From the IMG/VR virus record IMGVR_UViG_2778260991_000004, positions 1 to 34,638 of that record: a stretch of 34,638 bases of DNA; one strand, given 5' to 3'. Positions 18,341-25,356 of this stretch are shown one piece after another. The notes beneath the pieces are model-generated. The model saw only the letters and a list, made by a program, of their open reading frames with translations. It was not told the origin of the DNA and made no database searches. The position numbers were made by a program, and so were the translations under genes. Positions within the stretch are counted from its first letter, which is position 1, and each line of letters begins with the position of its first letter. The DNA is from a virus. Lineage: Duplodnaviria > Heunggongvirae > Uroviricota > Caudoviricetes.

Positions 18341-19154
18341 GTTTGCCCTTCTCCGTTAAAAATTCGTCGGGTAGTTTCTGAGGGACGTAGATCGGCAGTG
18401 CATCGCAACTGCAATAAACCTCCTCCCCGGCAGCAGTGATTTCGTCATAAAAACCATATACGGGCTTAATCAGCCCCTGCTCCAGCGCCCACGAATTGCG
18501 GAGGAGATAAATTTTCTCGTCGCGCTCTTTGTGGTCCTGTCGGTATTTGTAGCCCGGACGCCGCCAGTTAGAATGCCAGCGCAGAGCAATCGCACCACTC
18601 TGAACAGCCAGCAGATACTTAACGTTGCTCGCCAGCTTATGTCCCTGGTCAATTGCCACCCGGCGACTGATAAAATCCATATCCTTCACGGACTTCTGAA
18701 AACCGGACTTCACTTCCCGGCGATCAATTTCGCTCACCCCGTCAGGCGGAATGGACGTAACCCATCCCTGAAAACGCTGTATGGTTTTCTCGATAGCCTG
18801 TTCGCGGTTGAGTTTTATCAGGTTGGCACTGGCGAAAATTCGCCTGTCGAGTTCCTTACGAAACTCAGGTTTCAGTTTTTCAACAGTGATTTTTTTAGGG
18901 CCCTCAGGAGGCTGATCCCGTAATGCCCCGCCGTCGATAACAAGACGGCTGTAGATAGCGGTGAGATGTTTTCTGGCTACGGTATCATCAGGGGTTTCTC
19001 GCTGAGCGGCTACACGGAGTTTCCGGCACCATTCGAGCAATGATTTTTCGCTATCCCACCCGTGATTTACGTAGTAGTTAACGGCATCCGTCAGAACCTC
19101 ATACAGCGTCCTGATCCGTTTCTTCTTCCTCACCGCCCGGCTGGAAATTGCCAT
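18321..19154 (-). CDS. head morphogenesis / minor head protein
   Basis: ORF 18321..19292; preferred ATG at 19154 with GGAG upstream, overlapping the portal 3' end; basic, Arg/Lys-rich; sits after the portal gene. Confidence 0.4.
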   Translation of the reverse strand: MAISSRAVRKKKRIRTLYEVLTDAVNYYVNHGWDSEKSLLEWCRKLRVAAQRETPDDTVARKHLTAIYSRLVIDGGALRDQPPEGPKKITVEKLKPEFRKELDRRIFASANLIKLNREQAIEKTIQRFQGWVTSIPPDGVSEIDRREVKSGFQKSVKDMDFISRRVAIDQGHKLASNVKYLLAVQSGAIALRWHSNWRRPGYKYRQDHKERDEKIYLLRNSWALEQGLIKPVYGFYDEITAAGEEVYCSCDALPIYVPQKLPDEFLTEKGKREFNRA

Positions 19155-20538
19155 CAGGCGTCTCCTGCTTCGGTGGTTCATAATTCGCCAGCGCGTCCAC
19201 ATCAATGATGAGTGGAGCTTCGCCATAGGTTTGCGTGGCATTAACAAGGCTTGCCAGCCATTCAGTGACGGCGGCACGGTTTTCAGGATCAACCTGTGGC
19301 GACACGGCAGAGAAAAGTGCTATCGCCTGTTGAATCACTTTACTGTCGCTTTCCCGGCGTTTGTCCGGCGACTCCTCCACCAGCTCCTGCCACGTCGCGG
19401 TAAACTCGCGCCGCCACTGGTAAAACGTGGTTTTATAGTCCTCGGTTATGATGTCCGGGTAATCATTTTTCAGCGACTGATAAAATTCCTCGTTCCAGGC
19501 GATGTACTGCACCAGGCGTTCGAAATAATCCATCACAGGTTCAATCTGCTGGCGTACACCATCGATATACTGGCTGATGGCTTTCGAGTCCTCCTTACCT
19601 TCACCGAATCCGTTACTGAATGCTTCTTCCTTGATAATAATGGCCGGAACGTCACTCCCGGCGGCAATATCAGCAATGATATTGTCGCGGGCAGTATTCA
19701 GCGCCCCGTCGATGTTTTGCAGGTTCAGTGAACTTACGTCTTCGTCTTTTCCAATACTCAACACGCCTTTATTTTTGGCGGCTTTCACGTTTTCCCTTTT
19801 ACGCCCCGTGGCAGCAGCCATGATCCCGTCCATTTTCGAACCGTTCTGCACAACTTTAGCTACCAGTACGCCCGCTTTCTGACTAACGAGATCATTCGCC
19901 TCCATCGTGTTGATATAGGATTTCAGGGAATAAAGAACGCGCTGAAACACACTTCGTCCGGTGAATCCGAACGATGAACTCTGAAACTCCAGATAAATCG
20001 GTGTGCCGTTGAAGATTTTCAGTGTGCGTGACGGATGCCAGTCTTTTCCGCCAATCTTCAGCCTTTTGTTGGCTTCCTGGAAAAACGGACTGTTTGGGTT
20101 CTGGTCAGTCACCATCGAACCGGAAGCGTTCAACGGATCCCACGCGTTGATATACACATCCTCTTCTGTCAGCCCGAATGTCGGAAGCGGCTCACGACAT
20201 GAAACACTGTCGGTGCCCACGCCGATCGCTGCAGCACCGTAGCAACGAGACAGAAAAAACAGATTTTTTATCTTCTCGTTGACCCTCATACGTTCCCATA
20301 CCTCCTGGAAACGCCGCACAACCCTCTCGTCAGGATCTGTCTCCACGTTATACTGTCGCGGCTTACACATCGCCATCAGTATGGGTTTTTCGACAAGTTT
20401 TCCGCCCAGAGGATGGAATTGCCACAGCAGCTTACACAATTCATAGCCAATATCGGTTCCCGGCTGAATTTCTTCAGCCTCAAGAATACGCATCAGTGCT
20501 GAACCGAGGCCGCCAGTAATCTCGATCTCTGCCATCAA
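19099..20538 (-). CDS. portal protein
   Basis: 479-aa ORF directly downstream of the large terminase gene; acidic C-terminal tail; size and position typical of portal proteins. Confidence 0.6.
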   Translation of the reverse strand: MMAEIEITGGLGSALMRILEAEEIQPGTDIGYELCKLLWQFHPLGGKLVEKPILMAMCKPRQYNVETDPDERVVRRFQEVWERMRVNEKIKNLFFLSRCYGAAAIGVGTDSVSCREPLPTFGLTEEDVYINAWDPLNASGSMVTDQNPNSPFFQEANKRLKIGGKDWHPSRTLKIFNGTPIYLEFQSSSFGFTGRSVFQRVLYSLKSYINTMEANDLVSQKAGVLVAKVVQNGSKMDGIMAAATGRKRENVKAAKNKGVLSIGKDEDVSSLNLQNIDGALNTARDNIIADIAAGSDVPAIIIKEEAFSNGFGEGKEDSKAISQYIDGVRQQIEPVMDYFERLVQYIAWNEEFYQSLKNDYPDIITEDYKTTFYQWRREFTATWQELVEESPDKRRESDSKVIQQAIALFSAVSPQVDPENRAAVTEWLASLVNATQTYGEAPLIIDVDALANYEPPKQETPDGNFQPGGEEEETDQDAV

Positions 20539-20553
20539 AAATATCCTGATTTT

Positions 20554-21882
20554 TTACAACGCCGCGTAATTACCGTGCGCGATGATCAACCCATAGGTGT
20601 AACAATCGAAAAGGTCATCAGCACGTTTATGCGCGTCTTTATCCGCCAGGTGGAATCCGGCGATTTGTTTTATGAGGTGGTTTGCGGTGGTGCGCTTGAA
20701 TGAAACGGTCTTGTCGTAAGCCTCCCGGACGATTTTGCACACCCCCTGATAGTGGTAGCTGGATGCCATCACCGCCCGTTCATCTTTGCCCTTGCTGGTT
20801 AGTGCCGATTTAATCGGCGTCATATCCCAGCCTTCGGTTTCCGCCTTCTGGTTGAGGATTGCCCCCATCGCGGCGTCTTCCATAAAAATTCCCTGGCTGC
20901 CCAGACGCGGACGGCATAATTTCGCGAGGCGCTCAAGGTTGTCATAAACGCCGGGGATATATTCAGGAAGCAATGACGCTTTAATTTGCGTCACATCCCA
21001 GTCAATAATCGTCAGTTTTGGCTCGTCCGAATACGTTGATTCATAAGCGAAATACACCACGCCAGTACCATCATTTTCGGTCCCGCCTTTCAGCGCCGTA
21101 TCCATCACTGCGAAAATCATGTCGCAGTACGGCGGCATCTCAATCGGCTGACCGTCCACCAGCAGCTTATCGACATCGAGTAACGCGTCTTTGGACCAGT
21201 CCACGAACTCTGCAAGATATTCCTGCTGCCAGACGCGCGGATCGGATTTCTTTTCCGTTTCCTCCAGTTCTTCTTTCGGAATAAACGGATTCGATGAAGT
21301 TGGCGCATGGTGCATAACAAATCCCAGGGATTCATCGTGGCATATCGCGTAGAAAAAATTGCTCTCGTCGATACCGTTTGGTGTGGAAAATACCCACGCA
21401 CAGCCACGGTAATCGACAAGCGTCGGGCGTATCGCTCGGGGCCAGATTTCCTCGAGCATTTCCGGCGATTTAGTGAATGCGGCCTCATCAATCAGCACAG
21501 CGTGATATTTACGCCCACGCCCGGCCAGTTTGTTATTGTCCGTTACCCAAAAGTCGATGCGCCCCCCATTGCGGAGAATGATGCGCTTTTCATTTTTTGA
21601 CTGACTGAGGATCAGCGGTTGCAGAACGGCGCTAATTTCATCCCAGATTTCCTGGTACTGCCGGTATTGCGCGGTAAAAATCCCCACCCTACCCGCGATA
21701 AGTTGCCCGGTGGTAGGAACGGCAAATTTCCGCGTAGCGAAACTGGTAGCGATGTTCACCAGCATCACCGTTTTACCCCAGCGACGACCACAGCATACCG
21801 CGTGGAAGCGTTCTTCTATTGCCGCCGTCCATGCAGCTATTTGCCCCTCATGAGGTTTTGGGAGATAGATTTCAATCGACAT
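20554..21882 (-). CDS. terL: terminase large subunit
   Basis: Walker A-like CCGRRWGKT and Walker B-like AVLIDEA motifs in the N-terminal ATPase region, acidic nuclease-like C-terminal half; 442 aa. Confidence 0.8.
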   Translation of the reverse strand: MSIEIYLPKPHEGQIAAWTAAIEERFHAVCCGRRWGKTVMLVNIATSFATRKFAVPTTGQLIAGRVGIFTAQYRQYQEIWDEISAVLQPLILSQSKNEKRIILRNGGRIDFWVTDNNKLAGRGRKYHAVLIDEAAFTKSPEMLEEIWPRAIRPTLVDYRGCAWVFSTPNGIDESNFFYAICHDESLGFVMHHAPTSSNPFIPKEELEETEKKSDPRVWQQEYLAEFVDWSKDALLDVDKLLVDGQPIEMPPYCDMIFAVMDTALKGGTENDGTGVVYFAYESTYSDEPKLTIIDWDVTQIKASLLPEYIPGVYDNLERLAKLCRPRLGSQGIFMEDAAMGAILNQKAETEGWDMTPIKSALTSKGKDERAVMASSYHYQGVCKIVREAYDKTVSFKRTTANHLIKQIAGFHLADKDAHKRADDLFDCYTYGLIIAHGNYAAL

Positions 21883-22963
21883 TATCCACTCCCGGCATCG
21901 GCAGAGAGTTGTGGATAATTATTTCGTTATTCTCACCACCCACGCCTTTTTTGAGGTTTTCAATCTCAGTGCGCAGCTTTTCGTTGCGAAGCCTCAGTCC
22001 TTCAAGCTCCAGATCATTGCGACTGTCAGTTGCACCACCAGCAGAACTTCCTTTCGTCGCCATTATCAGCTTGATAAGTTCGCGCCGGGCGGCAGCCTTA
22101 TCCTCCAGCAGGATCTCAACACCAAATTTCCCGAGCTTTGCCCCTGCATATAATTGCCGCGCCTCCCCATCAAGCAGAGTGGTATCAGCCATATAAAGCT
22201 GCCCCGTTCCCTCACCGCAGCACTTCGGGCAGTCCGGATTGGGTATGGCGTTATCAACAAAGCCGAGGCCTCCATATTCCGGCTCGGGTTTGCCATCTCT
22301 GGAGGCCTGTGCCGCTGCCTTATCGAATTCTGCAATATCACGCCACTGGTAGAGATGATTCTCGCCCCAGCAATAACGGCAGTTAACACGGCGAAATTGT
22401 GCCAACTGATTGGGGTCGGCCTGGACAATAGCCATCAACTGGCTCACCAGTAAATCCAGGTCTGCGGTATAGCGTTTCTGGTACTGATTGCGGAAGTAGC
22501 TAATGGCACGATAAACCCTGGCATTTCTAAGCATACGGCTGGCGTTGCTGTTAGCTGTCGCACCTTGCCCCTCATAACCAGCCAGTCGGTATGCCTCTGT
22601 CGGCTTTTTCCCCTGAGCAACCAGCATCGCAAACTTAGCCTGCTGGTCAGAAATGCCGAATTCATCGGGACAGAATGAAATTTCCTCTGCGTCGCCCTCA
22701 TTCAGGCACGCATCGGATACTGACTTTTTTATCTGAGATTTTCCGTTCCGCTTTTGCGCAGTCTGCGCAGATTTTTTCTGCGCACTTTTTTGCGCAGTTT
22801 TGCGCATTTCTGTCTGCGCATTTTTCGGAGGTTTTTTGATGTAACGACGGGCTGTTGCGTAATTCAGTCCCCTTGCTTCACACCATGCCACCGGAGATAT
22901 ACCGGAGCGGGTGTATTCAGCAATATACTCCTGCTGCAACGCCCCCCAGTCCGGTCTGCTCAT
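21872..22963 (-). CDS. terS: terminase small subunit
   Basis: 363 aa; N-terminal helix-turn-helix-like segment, basic repeat region (TAQKSAQKKSAQTAQK), and a motif AYRLAGYEGQGATANSNASRMLRNARV typical of small terminase subunits; overlaps the terL start. Confidence 0.6.
   Translation of the reverse strand: MSRPDWGALQQEYIAEYTRSGISPVAWCEARGLNYATARRYIKKPPKNAQTEMRKTAQKSAQKKSAQTAQKRNGKSQIKKSVSDACLNEGDAEEISFCPDEFGISDQQAKFAMLVAQGKKPTEAYRLAGYEGQGATANSNASRMLRNARVYRAISYFRNQYQKRYTADLDLLVSQLMAIVQADPNQLAQFRRVNCRYCWGENHLYQWRDIAEFDKAAAQASRDGKPEPEYGGLGFVDNAIPNPDCPKCCGEGTGQLYMADTTLLDGEARQLYAGAKLGKFGVEILLEDKAAARRELIKLIMATKGSSAGGATDSRNDLELEGLRLRNEKLRTEIENLKKGVGGENNEIIIHNSLPMPGVDNVD
22755..22820. repeat. array of six TGCGCA hexamers within terS (candidate pac-like site)
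   Basis: TGCGCA at about 22755, 22764, 22779, 22791, 22801 and 22815 (spacing 9 to 15 bp), each preceded by a T-run; encodes the AQK repeats of terS. Confidence 0.5.
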
Positions 22964-22966
22964 CAG

Positions 22967-23218
22967 TTAGTCCTGATTTTTATCCACCCTGAGTAGTTCG
23001 CGCAGGGCAAAGGCATCCCCTTTTCTGGCAAGCTTAAACAATGCCGCCCGTAGCTCGGCTTCACCTTTCGCTCTGCCCTTACGGATGGACGCATAAAAAT
23101 TTGTCATTGCTTCCCGATTTTCTTTCAGTCGGTTCAGATCAACATCCAGAACGTCAGCTATTTGTTGTGCAGTCATCCGGCACGCTGCCAGAGACTCGAC
23201 TTTCGAATACGGAATCAT
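22967..23218 (-). CDS. small basic protein upstream of terS (possible DNA-binding)
   Basis: 83-aa ORF; ATG at 23218 preceded by GGGGGTGA; basic C-terminal helix. Confidence 0.35.
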   Translation of the reverse strand: MIPYSKVESLAACRMTAQQIADVLDVDLNRLKENREAMTNFYASIRKGRAKGEAELRAALFKLARKGDAFALRELLRVDKNQD

Positions 23219-24086
23219 TTGTCACCCCCATTGATATGCAGGGTGTCTTCTTCCTGTATTTTTCGTGAATGATTTTTACTGCAGCGTTGTTCCAGGTGAC
23301 CTGATGGTGAATGCGTTTATGGCTGGCGCCCATCAGGGATATTTTTACGCACGACGGCGCATACATGACGGAGTAAAAACTTTTAACGTAGGTTCCGGAA
23401 TCCAGATACAGTTCGGTCATTCCGCCGCTGTTTTTCTGCGTCTGTTTCTGCCCTAACTGGACAGCACCAATCGTCATAAACAACTCACCACGGCGACCGA
23501 GATTCGTGTACGTATTCACATCCTCGTTAATGCGCCCCATGAATGAGAACGGTCGATCAACCGAACAGATAAAGCTGTTCATTGCCTTGCGTTTCACCCA
23601 CGAAGCATGGCCGCCATTGTCACCAAGAAAATCCCCGCCCTGCGACATAGCGATGGAAAGAGCAGGTATTGATTCGTAGTACGCCAGCATTTCAGAAAGG
23701 ATCGCATCCAGTTTCCTTATCGGAAAATAGGCCTGGTCATAGTTGCGATCCACCCGAAACTGGAACTCGTGATAATCATCATCGAGCTGAATGAAGTATT
23801 GACACCCGACCAGTTTTGCCAGGTCGAAACAGGCATTACGGGCGTAAAAAATTGAGCGGCGGTCACAGAAATTATCGGCTTCGTCAAAACGACTGGCGAT
23901 ATCGGCTTTGGAAAACACCAGCACCTGTTCACCAAATTCAGCTATGTATTGATGCCATGTCTTATCTTCATCATCAACAACGATAAAAATTTTCCCGGTA
24001 TAGCCAGCACGACGCAACGTCCGGTAAGTCAGAACTTTGTCCGGTCGCCCGTGAGTCAGAATAAAGGCGCAAAAATCATCACGCAT
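23154..24086 (-). CDS. GT-A-fold-like (DxD motif) glycosyltransferase-like protein
   Basis: ORF 23154..24107; preferred ATG at 24086 with GGAGGAGG upstream, overlapping the ParB-like stop; motifs ILTHGRPD, IFIVVDDED and FIQLDDDY resemble GT-A nucleotide-sugar transferases; no methyltransferase motifs seen. Confidence 0.4.
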   Translation of the reverse strand: MRDDFCAFILTHGRPDKVLTYRTLRRAGYTGKIFIVVDDEDKTWHQYIAEFGEQVLVFSKADIASRFDEADNFCDRRSIFYARNACFDLAKLVGCQYFIQLDDDYHEFQFRVDRNYDQAYFPIRKLDAILSEMLAYYESIPALSIAMSQGGDFLGDNGGHASWVKRKAMNSFICSVDRPFSFMGRINEDVNTYTNLGRRGELFMTIGAVQLGQKQTQKNSGGMTELYLDSGTYVKSFYSVMYAPSCVKISLMGASHKRIHHQVTWNNAAVKIIHEKYRKKTPCISMGVTNDSVFESRVSGSVPDDCTTNS

Positions 24087-24870
24087 ATTCCTCCTCCTCC
24101 CCGCCATGCATGATCTCCACCATACGCTGCGTCATCCGGACAAATCCATTTTCGATAGCCTGCTGATAATCAATGATCACCAGCGCCGATTCCTCGAAAA
24201 AGCACTGAATTTCAGCGGGGGCGTGAGCGTAATAGTCCGCAATTCTGCTGAAATTAAACACCGTATGACGTTCTGCCGCACACAGGAGGAATTTCTCAAT
24301 ATCAGGATCAAGGGACGCCGAACGTATCCGGCTGATCAACTCCTGAGTTTTCGTATCGTCGTACAGTTCACTGATATCTGGTTTATCGCCCGACGGCTCA
24401 TAAACAGGCGTATCAATTTTCGTCGTGTACGGCTCCTCCTCATTTCCTGTACCTGGCAAAACATCCGTCAACAATTCATCAATTTCTGTTGAGCTGAATC
24501 CTGTCAAGGAGACATCAAAATCAGCATTGATTAGGTCCGACAGCTCCATCCGCAACAGATCTTCATCCCAGCCAGCATTCATCGGCAGGCGATTATCTGC
24601 CAGGCGGTACGCCTTTTTCTGCTCATCCGTCAGGCCAGACAGAACAATGACCGGAACAGAATCCATTTTGAGCATTTCAGCCGCCATAACACGACCGTGA
24701 CCCGCAATAATTTCGCCCTTTTCGTCAATCAGCACCGGATTAGTCCAGCCGAATTGCTTAATACTTTCTACCAGTTGTACCACCTGCTCAGTACTGTGCG
24801 TCCTGGCGTTGTGTGCATACGGAGACAGTTCTTGTAACGGGCGATAGACGATCTTCAATTTCTCGCTCAT
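24079..24870 (-). CDS. ParB-like nuclease domain protein
   Basis: 263 aa; N-terminal region with the motif IIAGHGRVMAA resembling the ParB/Srx nuclease-domain signature; acidic C-terminus; typical location upstream of terminase genes. Confidence 0.55.
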   Translation of the reverse strand: MSEKLKIVYRPLQELSPYAHNARTHSTEQVVQLVESIKQFGWTNPVLIDEKGEIIAGHGRVMAAEMLKMDSVPVIVLSGLTDEQKKAYRLADNRLPMNAGWDEDLLRMELSDLINADFDVSLTGFSSTEIDELLTDVLPGTGNEEEPYTTKIDTPVYEPSGDKPDISELYDDTKTQELISRIRSASLDPDIEKFLLCAAERHTVFNFSRIADYYAHAPAEIQCFFEESALVIIDYQQAIENGFVRMTQRMVEIMHGGEEEEYA

Positions 24871-24988
24871 ACAGCCTCGCTTTATGAATAAAAAAGCCCG
24901 CTATCGACCAGTGCGCTGGGTGCGCGGCGGGTGCCGATGACGAGCTTTGGCATTATCGCAGCCCCTCACAGAAGAGCTGCTGTAATGC

Positions 24989-25165
24989 CTAACCATCCTG
25001 ATGTTGTTGTGATTTCGCATTAACTAAGTCAATGAAGTCCTGGCACATTTCAAGACGATGACCATGATCATCGACAAAGTTATAACGCCGAAATATATCA
25101 ATAATTTCATTGGGACTTTTCCCCGCAATATGAGGATATTGTTTTGATTCGTAATTATGTTTCAT
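24989..25165 (-). CDS. small hypothetical protein (59 aa)
   Basis: Track ORF 24989..25201 trimmed to ATG ATG at 25165 with GGAG upstream; 5' end overlaps the divergent KTSC-like gene. Confidence 0.3.
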   Translation of the reverse strand: MKHNYESKQYPHIAGKSPNEIIDIFRRYNFVDDHGHRLEMCQDFIDLVNAKSQQHQDG

Positions 25166-25356
25166 CATCAAATCTCCAGTCAGTTGGGTATGATTCAGCA
25201 ACTCTCACACTGGAAATAGCCTTTCACAATGGAGGTATCTATCAATACTCTGGTGTTCCATCCAGGATCTATCAGGGTCTTATGAATGCCAGTTCAAAAG
25301 GCCAGTATTTTCACCAATTCATTAAAAATGTGTATCCATACCGTAAGGTAGGCTAA
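25144..25356 (+). CDS. KTSC-domain-like small protein
   Basis: 70 aa, TTG start with AGGA upstream; pattern VSSSNLQSVGYD...LEIAFHNGGIYQYSGVP..IYQGLMNASSKGQYF resembles the KTSC domain; plus strand. Confidence 0.5.
   Translation: MIRNYVSSSNLQSVGYDSATLTLEIAFHNGGIYQYSGVPSRIYQGLMNASSKGQYFHQFIKNVYPYRKVG

Follow-up and report, generated by a model that had tools for sequence, protein, structure and literature searches.

A TAGT-family glycosyltransferase paired with a ParB-like partner protein in an Escherichia coli prophage and its possible role in phage DNA modification

Most of what is known about glycosylation of phage DNA comes from lytic T-even-like phages and TET-containing metagenomic clusters, where the sugar is placed on a hydroxymethyl pyrimidine; in arabinosylating T-even relatives it is placed on 5-hydroxycytosine. 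We analyzed a gene pair in the virus record IMGVR_UViG_2778260991_000004 of IMG/VR. The stretch analyzed (34,638 nucleotides, hereafter the window) is a Rac-like lambdoid prophage of Escherichia coli, and all genes under discussion lie on its minus strand unless stated otherwise. The pair consists of a ParB-like gene, the product of which we call the partner, and a gene for a glycosyltransferase (GT) of the TET-associated glycosyltransferase (TAGT) family. A model reading the DNA without database searches (the original prediction) had described the two as a ParB/Srx-like nuclease-domain protein and a 310-aa protein with GT-A-like motifs immediately upstream of the terminase genes; the coordinates it gave and the motifs IIAGHGRVMAA, IFIVVDDED and DDDY were all correct on the minus strand.

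Phage TAGT members with assigned functions act on DNA, namely the glucosyl-HMC glucosyltransferase of T2/T6 and the GT-A enzymes associated with 5mYOX dioxygenases (PMC13216743; bioRxiv 10.1101/2023.12.21.572611). The T2/T6 beta-glucosyl-HMC-alpha-glucosyltransferase resembles the window GT in being phage-encoded, in its GT-A fold and in its match to PF20691, and it acts on DNA (PMC13216743). In contrast to the window GT, the T6 enzyme uses the glucose on 5-hydroxymethylcytosine (5hmC) as acceptor, works together with a dCMP hydroxymethylase and an alpha-GT and does so without a ParB-like protein; the window locus contains no gene of the T6 pathway. The alpha-GT of T4 is thought to act through the replisome (PMC13216743). 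The 5mYOX-associated GT-A enzymes share the fold and the R...DDD...ED motif with the window GT; they act post-replicatively and are encoded in clusters with epimerases, O-methyltransferases and second GTs, often with ParB and terminase genes nearby, and the constructs used to assay them held only a C5-methyltransferase and TET beside the GT-cluster genes (PMC8256090; bioRxiv 10.1101/2023.12.21.572611). Their 5hmC is made by an adjacent C5-methyltransferase and TET, whereas the clade of the window GT has no such neighbours and, unlike them, is always paired with a protein carrying a specific C-terminal domain (CTD). When acting on DNA, TAGT-family enzymes and the base-J glucosyltransferase (JGT) use as acceptor a hydroxymethyl pyrimidine or a sugar already present on one. 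Iyer et al. reportedly predicted in 2013 that JGT and GREB1 are eukaryotic GT-A relatives together with TAGT. JGT needs the 5-hydroxymethyluracil made by JBP and GREB1 O-GlcNAcylates the oestrogen receptor (PMC7968844), and neither of them has a ParB-like partner, unlike the window GT. Of 753 phage genomes encoding a GT, 288 had 'solitary' TAGT homologues in a 2026 survey, which did not settle what they do (PMC13216743). Contigs with a GT-A gene but no 5mYOX or ThyS had been put aside as 'less likely' to modify DNA, and their neighbours were noted to include ParB and terminase (bioRxiv 10.1101/2023.12.21.572611).

The ParB-like gene also has described relatives. The Fe(II)/2-oxoglutarate 5-methylpyrimidine dioxygenase 5mYOX176 requires, in a cognate-specific manner, the ParB-like protein ParB176, which has no DNA-binding domain, to act as a thymine dioxygenase on double-stranded DNA (PMC13229309). 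Like ParB176 the partner combines an N-terminal nucleotide-binding domain with a C-terminal domain, has no recognisable DNA-binding domain and is encoded beside its enzyme; the enzyme is here a GT-A glycosyltransferase, and in contrast to ParB176 the CTD also exists without a ParB domain. In ParB-DNA methyltransferase fusions (phrog_498; PADLOC MTase_II), which are typically prophage-encoded and frequently neighbour terminase genes, the first ~140 residues are homologous to the partner. There a catalytic module dependent on S-adenosylmethionine (SAM) is fused to the ParB domain, whereas the ParB domain of the window protein is joined to the CTD, with the GT being encoded separately and translationally coupled; Bce_0392 of B. 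cereus is an example of such a methyltransferase fusion (cited in PMC5512222). Canonical ParB of ParABS systems shares with the partner the ParB/Srx fold with the Box I R, the Box II GxxR and the Box III N, but possesses a central helix-turn-helix (HTH) domain binding parS and an adjacent ParA, both of which are missing here. According to PMC13229309, a 2013 proposal held that ParB-fold proteins direct DNA-modifying enzymes. Our literature search found no paper tying TAGT to ParB or describing the CTD.

We analyzed how regularly the two genes occur together. A first viral scan with the single GT protein returned near-identical E. coli prophages only. Since an alignment of 39 homologous sequences was too divergent for the locus scan, a subset of 12 sequences was used, and the genome scan, with one genome taken per species, yielded 76 loci spanning Proteobacteria, Bacteroidota, Firmicutes, Planctomycetes, Verrucomicrobia, Saccharibacteria, Acidobacteria and an archaeal metagenome-assembled genome. 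A partner gene is located directly 5' of the GT gene on the same strand in 73 of the 76 loci, the three exceptions being loci that are cut at the GT or hold a GT fragment only. The reverse search, starting from the CTD motifs of the partner, found the GT downstream in all 44 non-E. coli viral contigs examined. Where both genes are complete (114 loci), partner stop and GT start overlap in 100 cases, in 87 of these by exactly 8 or 11 nt; the gap is at most 1 nt in three further loci and larger than 30 nt in 11, and 10 of these 11 have an identified inserted gene or a spacing that implies one. The pairing of partner and GT is effectively obligate and ancient. The original prediction had considered the combination less usual than pairing with a methyltransferase; it is instead the rule for this GT clade. 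One large clade of 'solitary' TAGT glycosyltransferases is thus not solitary, as a specific partner is always present.

In the window the two genes overlap by the 8 nt ATGCGTGA. Together with the Shine-Dalgarno run ahead of the GT start, this overlap makes the translational coupling of the original prediction credible. A longer GT reading frame exists (23154-24107, 317 aa), starting at an in-frame ATG 7 codons upstream of the 310-aa start. We favour the shorter form because the N-termini of homologues read MRxDF and because the Shine-Dalgarno run GGAGGAGGAG is positioned at 24091-24100.

Alignment of the partner proteins revealed that the constant element is their C-terminal domain. The CTD comprises ~115 aa and is better conserved than the ParB domain. 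It contains the motif Y-T-x-K-[IV]-x-x-P-x-Y-E-P (YTxKIxxPxYEP), which sits in a linker left disordered by AlphaFold2 (AF2), followed by a helical region with the pattern FLxxAAxRHxVFNYxxIAxYYAHA..Q..ME.SALVIID...AI.NG. Y148, P155, Y157, R201, F205 and D234 are among the invariant residues, and T149 is kept in at least 90% of the homologues. The CTD matched no Pfam family and no PDB homologue in a profile sequence search. Since the AF2 model is poor, with a predicted local distance difference test (pLDDT) score of 30-70 reflecting a shallow alignment, we assign no fold. In the Vibrio phage pv27 the protein 5' of the GT has only 139 aa and matches the CTD alone (positions 121-248 of the hidden Markov model, E 1e-50), and partners without a ParB domain were found in intact context in 8 genome loci. 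A database search with the CTD profile returned more than 7,200 proteins; among the best 120 matches ~100 are stand-alone proteins of 125-140 aa without a Pfam domain and ~20 have a ParB_N-CTD architecture. The CTD, and not the ParB domain, is therefore the universal companion of this GT clade.

The GT itself was identified with confidence. It matches the Pfam family TAGT (PF20691) over positions 4-205 of the 205-position profile (E 1.3e-35, 123.6 bits against a cut-off of 27.5) and phrog_842, annotated as 'beta-glucosyl-HMC-alpha-glucosyltransferase', with 3e-102; its homologues carry PF20691 in precomputed annotation, while the Prokaryotic Genome Annotation Pipeline (PGAP) names the E. coli protein 'hypothetical protein' or 'GREB1-related protein'. 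The structure model shows with confidence a GT-A fold (nucleotide-diphospho-sugar transferase), and both motifs, IFIVVDDED with D41 and LDDDY with D102, are present. Across 39 homologues with 38-81% identity D41, D102, G151-D152, R166-K167, N187 and D189 (NEDVN), T216-Q217, G231-T232 and K235 (GTYxK), R258, and H260 and H261 (RxHH) are invariant, and R14, D103, D104, Y105 and Y233 are conserved in at least 90%. These residues fit the R...DDD...ED signature of phage GT-A DNA glycosyltransferases (bioRxiv 10.1101/2023.12.21.572611). The glycosyltransferase character proposed in the original prediction is hence well supported by family, fold and the invariant D102, and the pattern suggests an active, metal-dependent GT-A enzyme that would use a nucleotide-sugar donor. 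Neither GT nor partner contains a methyltransferase domain according to Pfam, in agreement with the absence of methyltransferase motifs noted before. Structural neighbours of the GT include glycogenin, SunS/ThuS, ColGalT1, GalNAc-T, TarP, TarS and AvpGT; a sequence search of PDB with the GT profile gave no match and PADLOC no defence-system assignment. The clade is large, with 1,321 representatives of 50%-identity clusters at E<=1e-3. Long homologues include tandem TAGT-TAGT, TAGT-SAM-methyltransferase and TAGT-sulfotransferase fusions; ParB-GT fusions were sought among them and not found. The last 30 residues of the window GT (281-310; 23154-23243) form a C-terminal tail restricted to the Escherichia lineage and predicted to be disordered, and their coding sequence overlaps the following 83-aa open reading frame (ORF) by 65 nt, or by 23 nt with the PGAP start.

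At its N-terminus the partner carries a ParB/Srx domain. The match to ParB_N (PF02195) is marginal but above threshold (27.9 bits against a cut-off of 26.3). A profile of the domain built from 31 homologues matches the Noc and Spo0J/ParB structures in PDB with 2.5e-13 to 8e-13, aligning GHGR with GERR, NAR with QPR and DN with EN. The positions contacting the nucleoside triphosphate (NTP) are kept (N21/R23, G57-x-x-R60 of GHGR, and N93), N21, G57 and N93 being invariant and R60 present in at least 90%; a His replaces the catalytic, hydrolytic Glu of GERR, while the phosphate-contact residues are retained. Foldseek matched the AF2 model of the domain (pLDDT ~80) to ParB, including ParB-CDP structures, to Noc, PadC and KorB, and to sulfiredoxin (Srx) and the serine kinase SerK. 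The domain belongs to the subtype fused to phage DNA methyltransferases, with matches to PADLOC MTase_II (4e-38, residues 10-144) and phrog_498 (8.7e-51, residues 3-141).

Cultured viruses with this GT clade include the Lactobacillus phages phi jlb1, c5 and LL-Ku, the Nocardia phage NTR1, 191-kb Vibrio phages and the haloarchaeal virus HHTV-2; phi jlb1 shows the same order of ParB-like gene, GT, TerS, TerL and portal as the window. The clade extends over temperate phages of many phyla and an archaeal virus, and no known route to the usual acceptor accompanies it. In E. coli ~1,570 of 5,426 complete genomes match the locus and 839-866 hold at least 80% of it, hundreds of genomes holding most of it at about 95-97% nucleotide identity. 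The intact pair is present in ~15% of complete E. coli genomes including E. coli W, where the pair shows 97% identity, so that the target of the GT is directly testable in a model organism. K-12, BL21 and many other matching strains keep only a 5' stub of the locus: YnaK (87 aa) of the Rac prophage of K-12 MG1655 corresponds to partner residues 1-89 with 95.5% identity, CTD and GT are deleted, and ydaY is unrelated to the GT. The literature on ynaK, on TAGT with ParB and on HHTV-2 yielded no functional data. In the STEC711 record PGAP annotates just the first 86 codons of the partner gene (window 24613-24870) as a pseudogene 'ynaK, missing C-terminus'. The 263-codon reading frame is intact despite this label, which seems to be inherited from the truncated K-12 gene.

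The architecture of the loci varies with the presence of the ParB domain. Pairs with a ParB domain are found in temperate phages between replication/recombination and packaging genes, and the terminase genes that follow them belong to no fewer than five unrelated families (Terminase_6N, Terminase_3, TerL_ATPase, GpA and T7-like). Pairs without it follow directly after a family-A DNA polymerase gene (L108, L114, L140, L243) or a primase-helicase gene (L106), lie between primase/exonuclease and helicase genes (pv27) and adjoin N6/N4 DNA methylases (L136, L243, L245). Locus L140 (6460-8906) contains two tandem CTD-GT pairs, which argues for a cognate specificity of partner and GT. In 9 viral loci a gene for a 318-aa His-phosphatase and cytidylyltransferase-like protein is inserted between partner and GT. 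Its cytidylyltransferase-like domain resembles RfaE domain II and TagD. Enzymes of this kind produce nucleotide-activated sugars or polyols. In L209 (4968-6650) the partner is fused in frame to the His-phosphatase/cytidylyltransferase, either as a real fusion or through an assembly frameshift, and in L243 (8001-10628) DNA polymerase A, CTD, TAGT, a cytidylyltransferase-like gene and an N6/N4 DNA methylase follow each other in a row. Other loci have a class-I SAM methyltransferase between partner and GT or an NAD-dependent sugar epimerase/dehydratase nearby. These accessory genes point to the building of a glycan. The metagenomic phage of locus L248 (17837-20316), which has a ParB-GT pair, also carries four consecutive GT2-family genes just after the capsid gene; these may represent a separate system for glycosylation of virion proteins.

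Taking these observations together we propose, with a confidence that falls a little short of even, that the pair is a late-expressed two-subunit module glycosylating phage DNA. The prophage would express a two-subunit accessory enzyme late in the lytic cycle, in which the GT-A enzyme of the TAGT family is the catalytic subunit drawing a sugar from a nucleotide-sugar donor and the CTD, with YTxKIxxPxYEP and its helical region, is a GT-specific subunit. The NTP-binding ParB/Srx domain would couple the enzyme to duplex DNA and may load on it as an NTP-gated clamp carrying the GT, whereas phages that have their own replisome may need no more than the CTD. Newly replicated phage DNA would be glycosylated before packaging, and the injected DNA would then resist host nucleases. 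The partner would recruit or activate the GT, a part that ParB-like proteins play for the thymine dioxygenases of phages. The physical complex of GT and partner, DNA as acceptor and the protective role are parts of this scheme that we infer. DNA is chosen as substrate because phage family members with assigned functions act on DNA, because the ParB domain is of the type fused to DNA methyltransferases, because the version without ParB adjoins polymerase and methylase genes, and because there are precedents in the ParB-like activators of thymine dioxygenases and in the T4 alpha-GT with its presumed action via the replisome. Two other mechanisms, a ParB nuclease creating the acceptor and a ParB-bound NTP serving as the acceptor, were dropped as the core of the system, as many partners have no ParB domain.

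Several observations weigh against glycosylation of DNA by the pair, and the main difficulty is chemical, as a source of 5-hydroxymethyl pyrimidine was not found at the locus. TET/JBP, C5-methylase and thymidylate-synthase-like hydroxymethylase genes are absent from the window and from the full prophage, and no ThyA/dCMP hydroxymethylase or homologue of the T6 alpha-GT was found in ~125 related loci. In the Pfam-annotated neighbourhoods of six proteins TET_JBP was not found within 8-10 kb, where the contig permitted, and it was not among the 25 commonest of 98 neighbouring Pfam families, which leaves room for a rarer co-occurrence. The partner is strongly acidic, with a net charge of -26 and a pI of 4.45 (family median charge -23); it has no HTH match in Pfam, and residue 135 is followed by an acidic linker and the CTD without a recognisable DNA-binding domain. 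Comparison of the clade alignment with the T6 TAGT by hhalign gave no significant match, so that function can be transferred from T6 by family membership only; acceptor specificity as in T6 was dropped for the window GT for the same reason. Finally, the family member GREB1 glycosylates a protein (PMC7968844). The DNA-modification or anti-restriction role raised in the original prediction is the most likely reading of the pair but remains a candidate role, and no source of a hydroxymethyl pyrimidine was found for it.

It follows that either the GT modifies canonical DNA in a new way or its acceptor is not DNA. In the former case the module would glycosylate canonical or Dam/Dcm-methylated DNA, at a base, the backbone or a DNA end, without prior hydroxymethylation, which we regard as possible but doubtful. 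To our knowledge a sugar put directly on unhydroxymethylated DNA has no precedent among DNA glycosyltransferases. If true, CTD-dependent glycosylation of canonical DNA would constitute a new and very widespread class of phage DNA modification, given its presence in ~15% of E. coli genomes. Either outcome is informative, revealing new modification chemistry on canonical DNA or phage protein glycosylation coupled to the ParB fold. The pair would add a second enzyme class, after the dioxygenases, to the emerging idea of ParB-fold partners for DNA-modifying enzymes.

The strongest rival of DNA glycosylation is glycosylation of a protein, which we consider unlikely on balance. The GT could modify its own partner at Tyr or Thr of YTxKIxxPxYEP, similar to the self-priming of glycogenin, or another phage or host protein, and the product could be a glycosylated acidic protein such as a decoy or DNA mimic against host defences. 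Known DNA-mimic anti-restriction proteins are as acidic as the partner, Y148 and Y157 are invariant and T149 nearly so in a segment that AF2 leaves unstructured, and no hydroxylated base is needed. The structural neighbours glycogenin, SunS/ThuS, ColGalT1 and GalNAc-T are peptide- or protein-modifying GT-A enzymes, and GREB1 provides an example of protein O-GlcNAcylation within the same family (PMC7968844). The conserved segment could equally be a docking peptide, however, and the tandem pairs in L140 are more readily explained by one cognate subunit for each enzyme than by an acceptor in common. DNA is likewise indicated by the consistent vicinity of genes for DNA polymerase, primase and DNA methylase and by a ParB domain of the type found in methyltransferases.

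A small molecule as the target appears rather improbable. The GT would then modify a nucleotide, a nucleoside or a defence signal, with the ParB domain supplying NTP binding and the DNA left untouched. Ligands of the ParB fold are CTP, ATP or GTP (PMC12704722), and the partner retains the residues contacting the NTP; the structural neighbours of the GT include AvpGT, which was crystallised together with the nucleoside Ara-A. NTP binding is not at the core of the system, however, given that ~100 of the best 120 CTD matches have no ParB domain, and no defence-signalling context was seen around the pair.

Since the pair is located immediately 5' of TerS/TerL in the window and in most temperate-phage loci, with several unrelated terminase families, the ParB-like protein could also be a pac-site-binding, nicking or partition factor for the terminase, with the GT being incidental. 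We give very little weight to this explanation, and the packaging role mentioned in the original prediction is disfavoured accordingly. The sister prophage of ETEC4071 shares TerS, TerL, portal, lysis and AB5 toxin genes with the window but not the ParB-GT pair; the pair is therefore optional cargo and not part of the packaging machine. Moreover, the partner has no HTH, and ParA is annotated neither in the prophage nor among the annotated recurrent neighbour clusters of related loci. ParB-less partners occur with the GT in replication modules distant from terminase genes, and conservation next to such varied terminases speaks for a common place within the transcription unit rather than for interaction with a specific terminase. 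In the ETEC4071 prophage an Rz-like lysis gene and an antirepressor occupy the position of the pair.

Equally hard to sustain is a function in lysogenic conversion, in which the GT would act on a cell-envelope polymer such as O-antigen or teichoic acid in the manner of TarP or the Gtr systems. TarP and TarS are structural neighbours and surface remodelling is frequent among prophage GTs, but the pair lies in a late lytic operon and is not a moron with its own promoter, Gtr-type membrane partners are not annotated in the prophage, and the pair is distributed over diderms, monoderms and a haloarchaeal virus, the hosts of which have no common envelope polymer. Least probable of all is an inactive remnant of a former TET/JBP-glycosyltransferase pathway, for although the family is named after its association with TET/JBP and TET/JBP is absent here, the catalytic residues and many others do not vary across phyla among homologues of 38-81% identity, the gene overlap is conserved, and hundreds of E. 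coli genomes carry most of the locus at about 95-97% nucleotide identity.

The positions of the features in the window are compiled in Table 1. The regions 22900-25000 (2.1 kb) and 21872-24870 (3.0 kb) show 100% identity to the STEC711 chromosome. Transcription proceeds from the Q-region through the AB5 toxin pair, the holins and endolysin, the ParB-like ORF, the GT and the 83-aa ORF to TerS, TerL and portal; within the late operon the pair follows the lysis cassette and precedes the terminase genes.

Table 1. Features of the partner-GT locus and the adjoining terminase genes (positions in the window)
Feature	Position	Strand	Size, motif or evidence
ParB-like partner gene	24079-24870	minus	263 aa; contains IIAGHGRVMAA; PF02195 2.5e-6; phrog_620 5e-90
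ParB/Srx N-terminal domain (ParB-CTPase fold), residues 1-135	24466-24870	minus	PDB profile search, Foldseek, AF2
Partner CTD, residues 143-263	24082-24444	minus	conservation; stand-alone copies beside GT
Motif YTTKIDTPVYEP in CTD, residues 148-159	24394-24429	minus	alignment of homologues
Overlap of partner stop and GT start, 8 nt, ATGCGTGA	24079-24086	minus	sequence
GGAGG-rich Shine-Dalgarno run GGAGGAGGAG ahead of GT start	24091-24100	minus	sequence
GT-A glycosyltransferase gene, TAGT family	23154-24086	minus	310 aa; PF20691; second ATG
DxD motif (metal and nucleotide-sugar binding), D102-D103-D104 of LDDDY	23775-23783	minus	conservation, 39 homologues
83-aa ORF between GT and TerS	22967-23218	minus	phrog_309 2.5e-22
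TerS	21872-22963	minus	Terminase_2 7e-9; phrog_51 3e-71
TerL	20554-21882	minus	Terminase_6N 2.6e-5; phrog_2 5.5e-36

The match of the 83-aa ORF is confined to the middle of the TerS family phrog_309, so that it may encode a split or auxiliary component of the small terminase; the ORF recurs 3' of the GT in enterobacterial loci and in a few others.

Further genes of the prophage deserve a short description. The AB5 toxin gene pair (26775-27257 and 27268-27993, minus strand) is flanked by the Q-antiterminator region on one side and the lysis genes on the other, and its region has a low GC content (36%). Its A subunit is a pertussis-like/ArtA-like ADP-ribosyltransferase, named 'scabin-related ADP-ribosyltransferase' by PGAP, and its B subunit a 'subtilase family AB5 toxin binding subunit'. 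A 298-aa ORF at 30786-31682 (minus strand) sits in an island of 37-42% GC and gave no match in Pfam and PADLOC; it could be a moron or serve in defence. At this position the STEC711 prophage is unlike the window and has two hypothetical genes on the plus strand. The portal gene (19099-20538, minus strand) is labelled 'anti-CBASS protein Acb1 family protein' by PGAP. It matches Phage_portal_3 (PF06381) and is located at the portal position, and the Acb1-family label is probably misleading. Between the lysis cassette and the ParB-like gene a KTSC-domain gene is encoded on the plus strand (25144-25356), partly overlapped by a 70-aa ORF on the minus strand (24989-25201).

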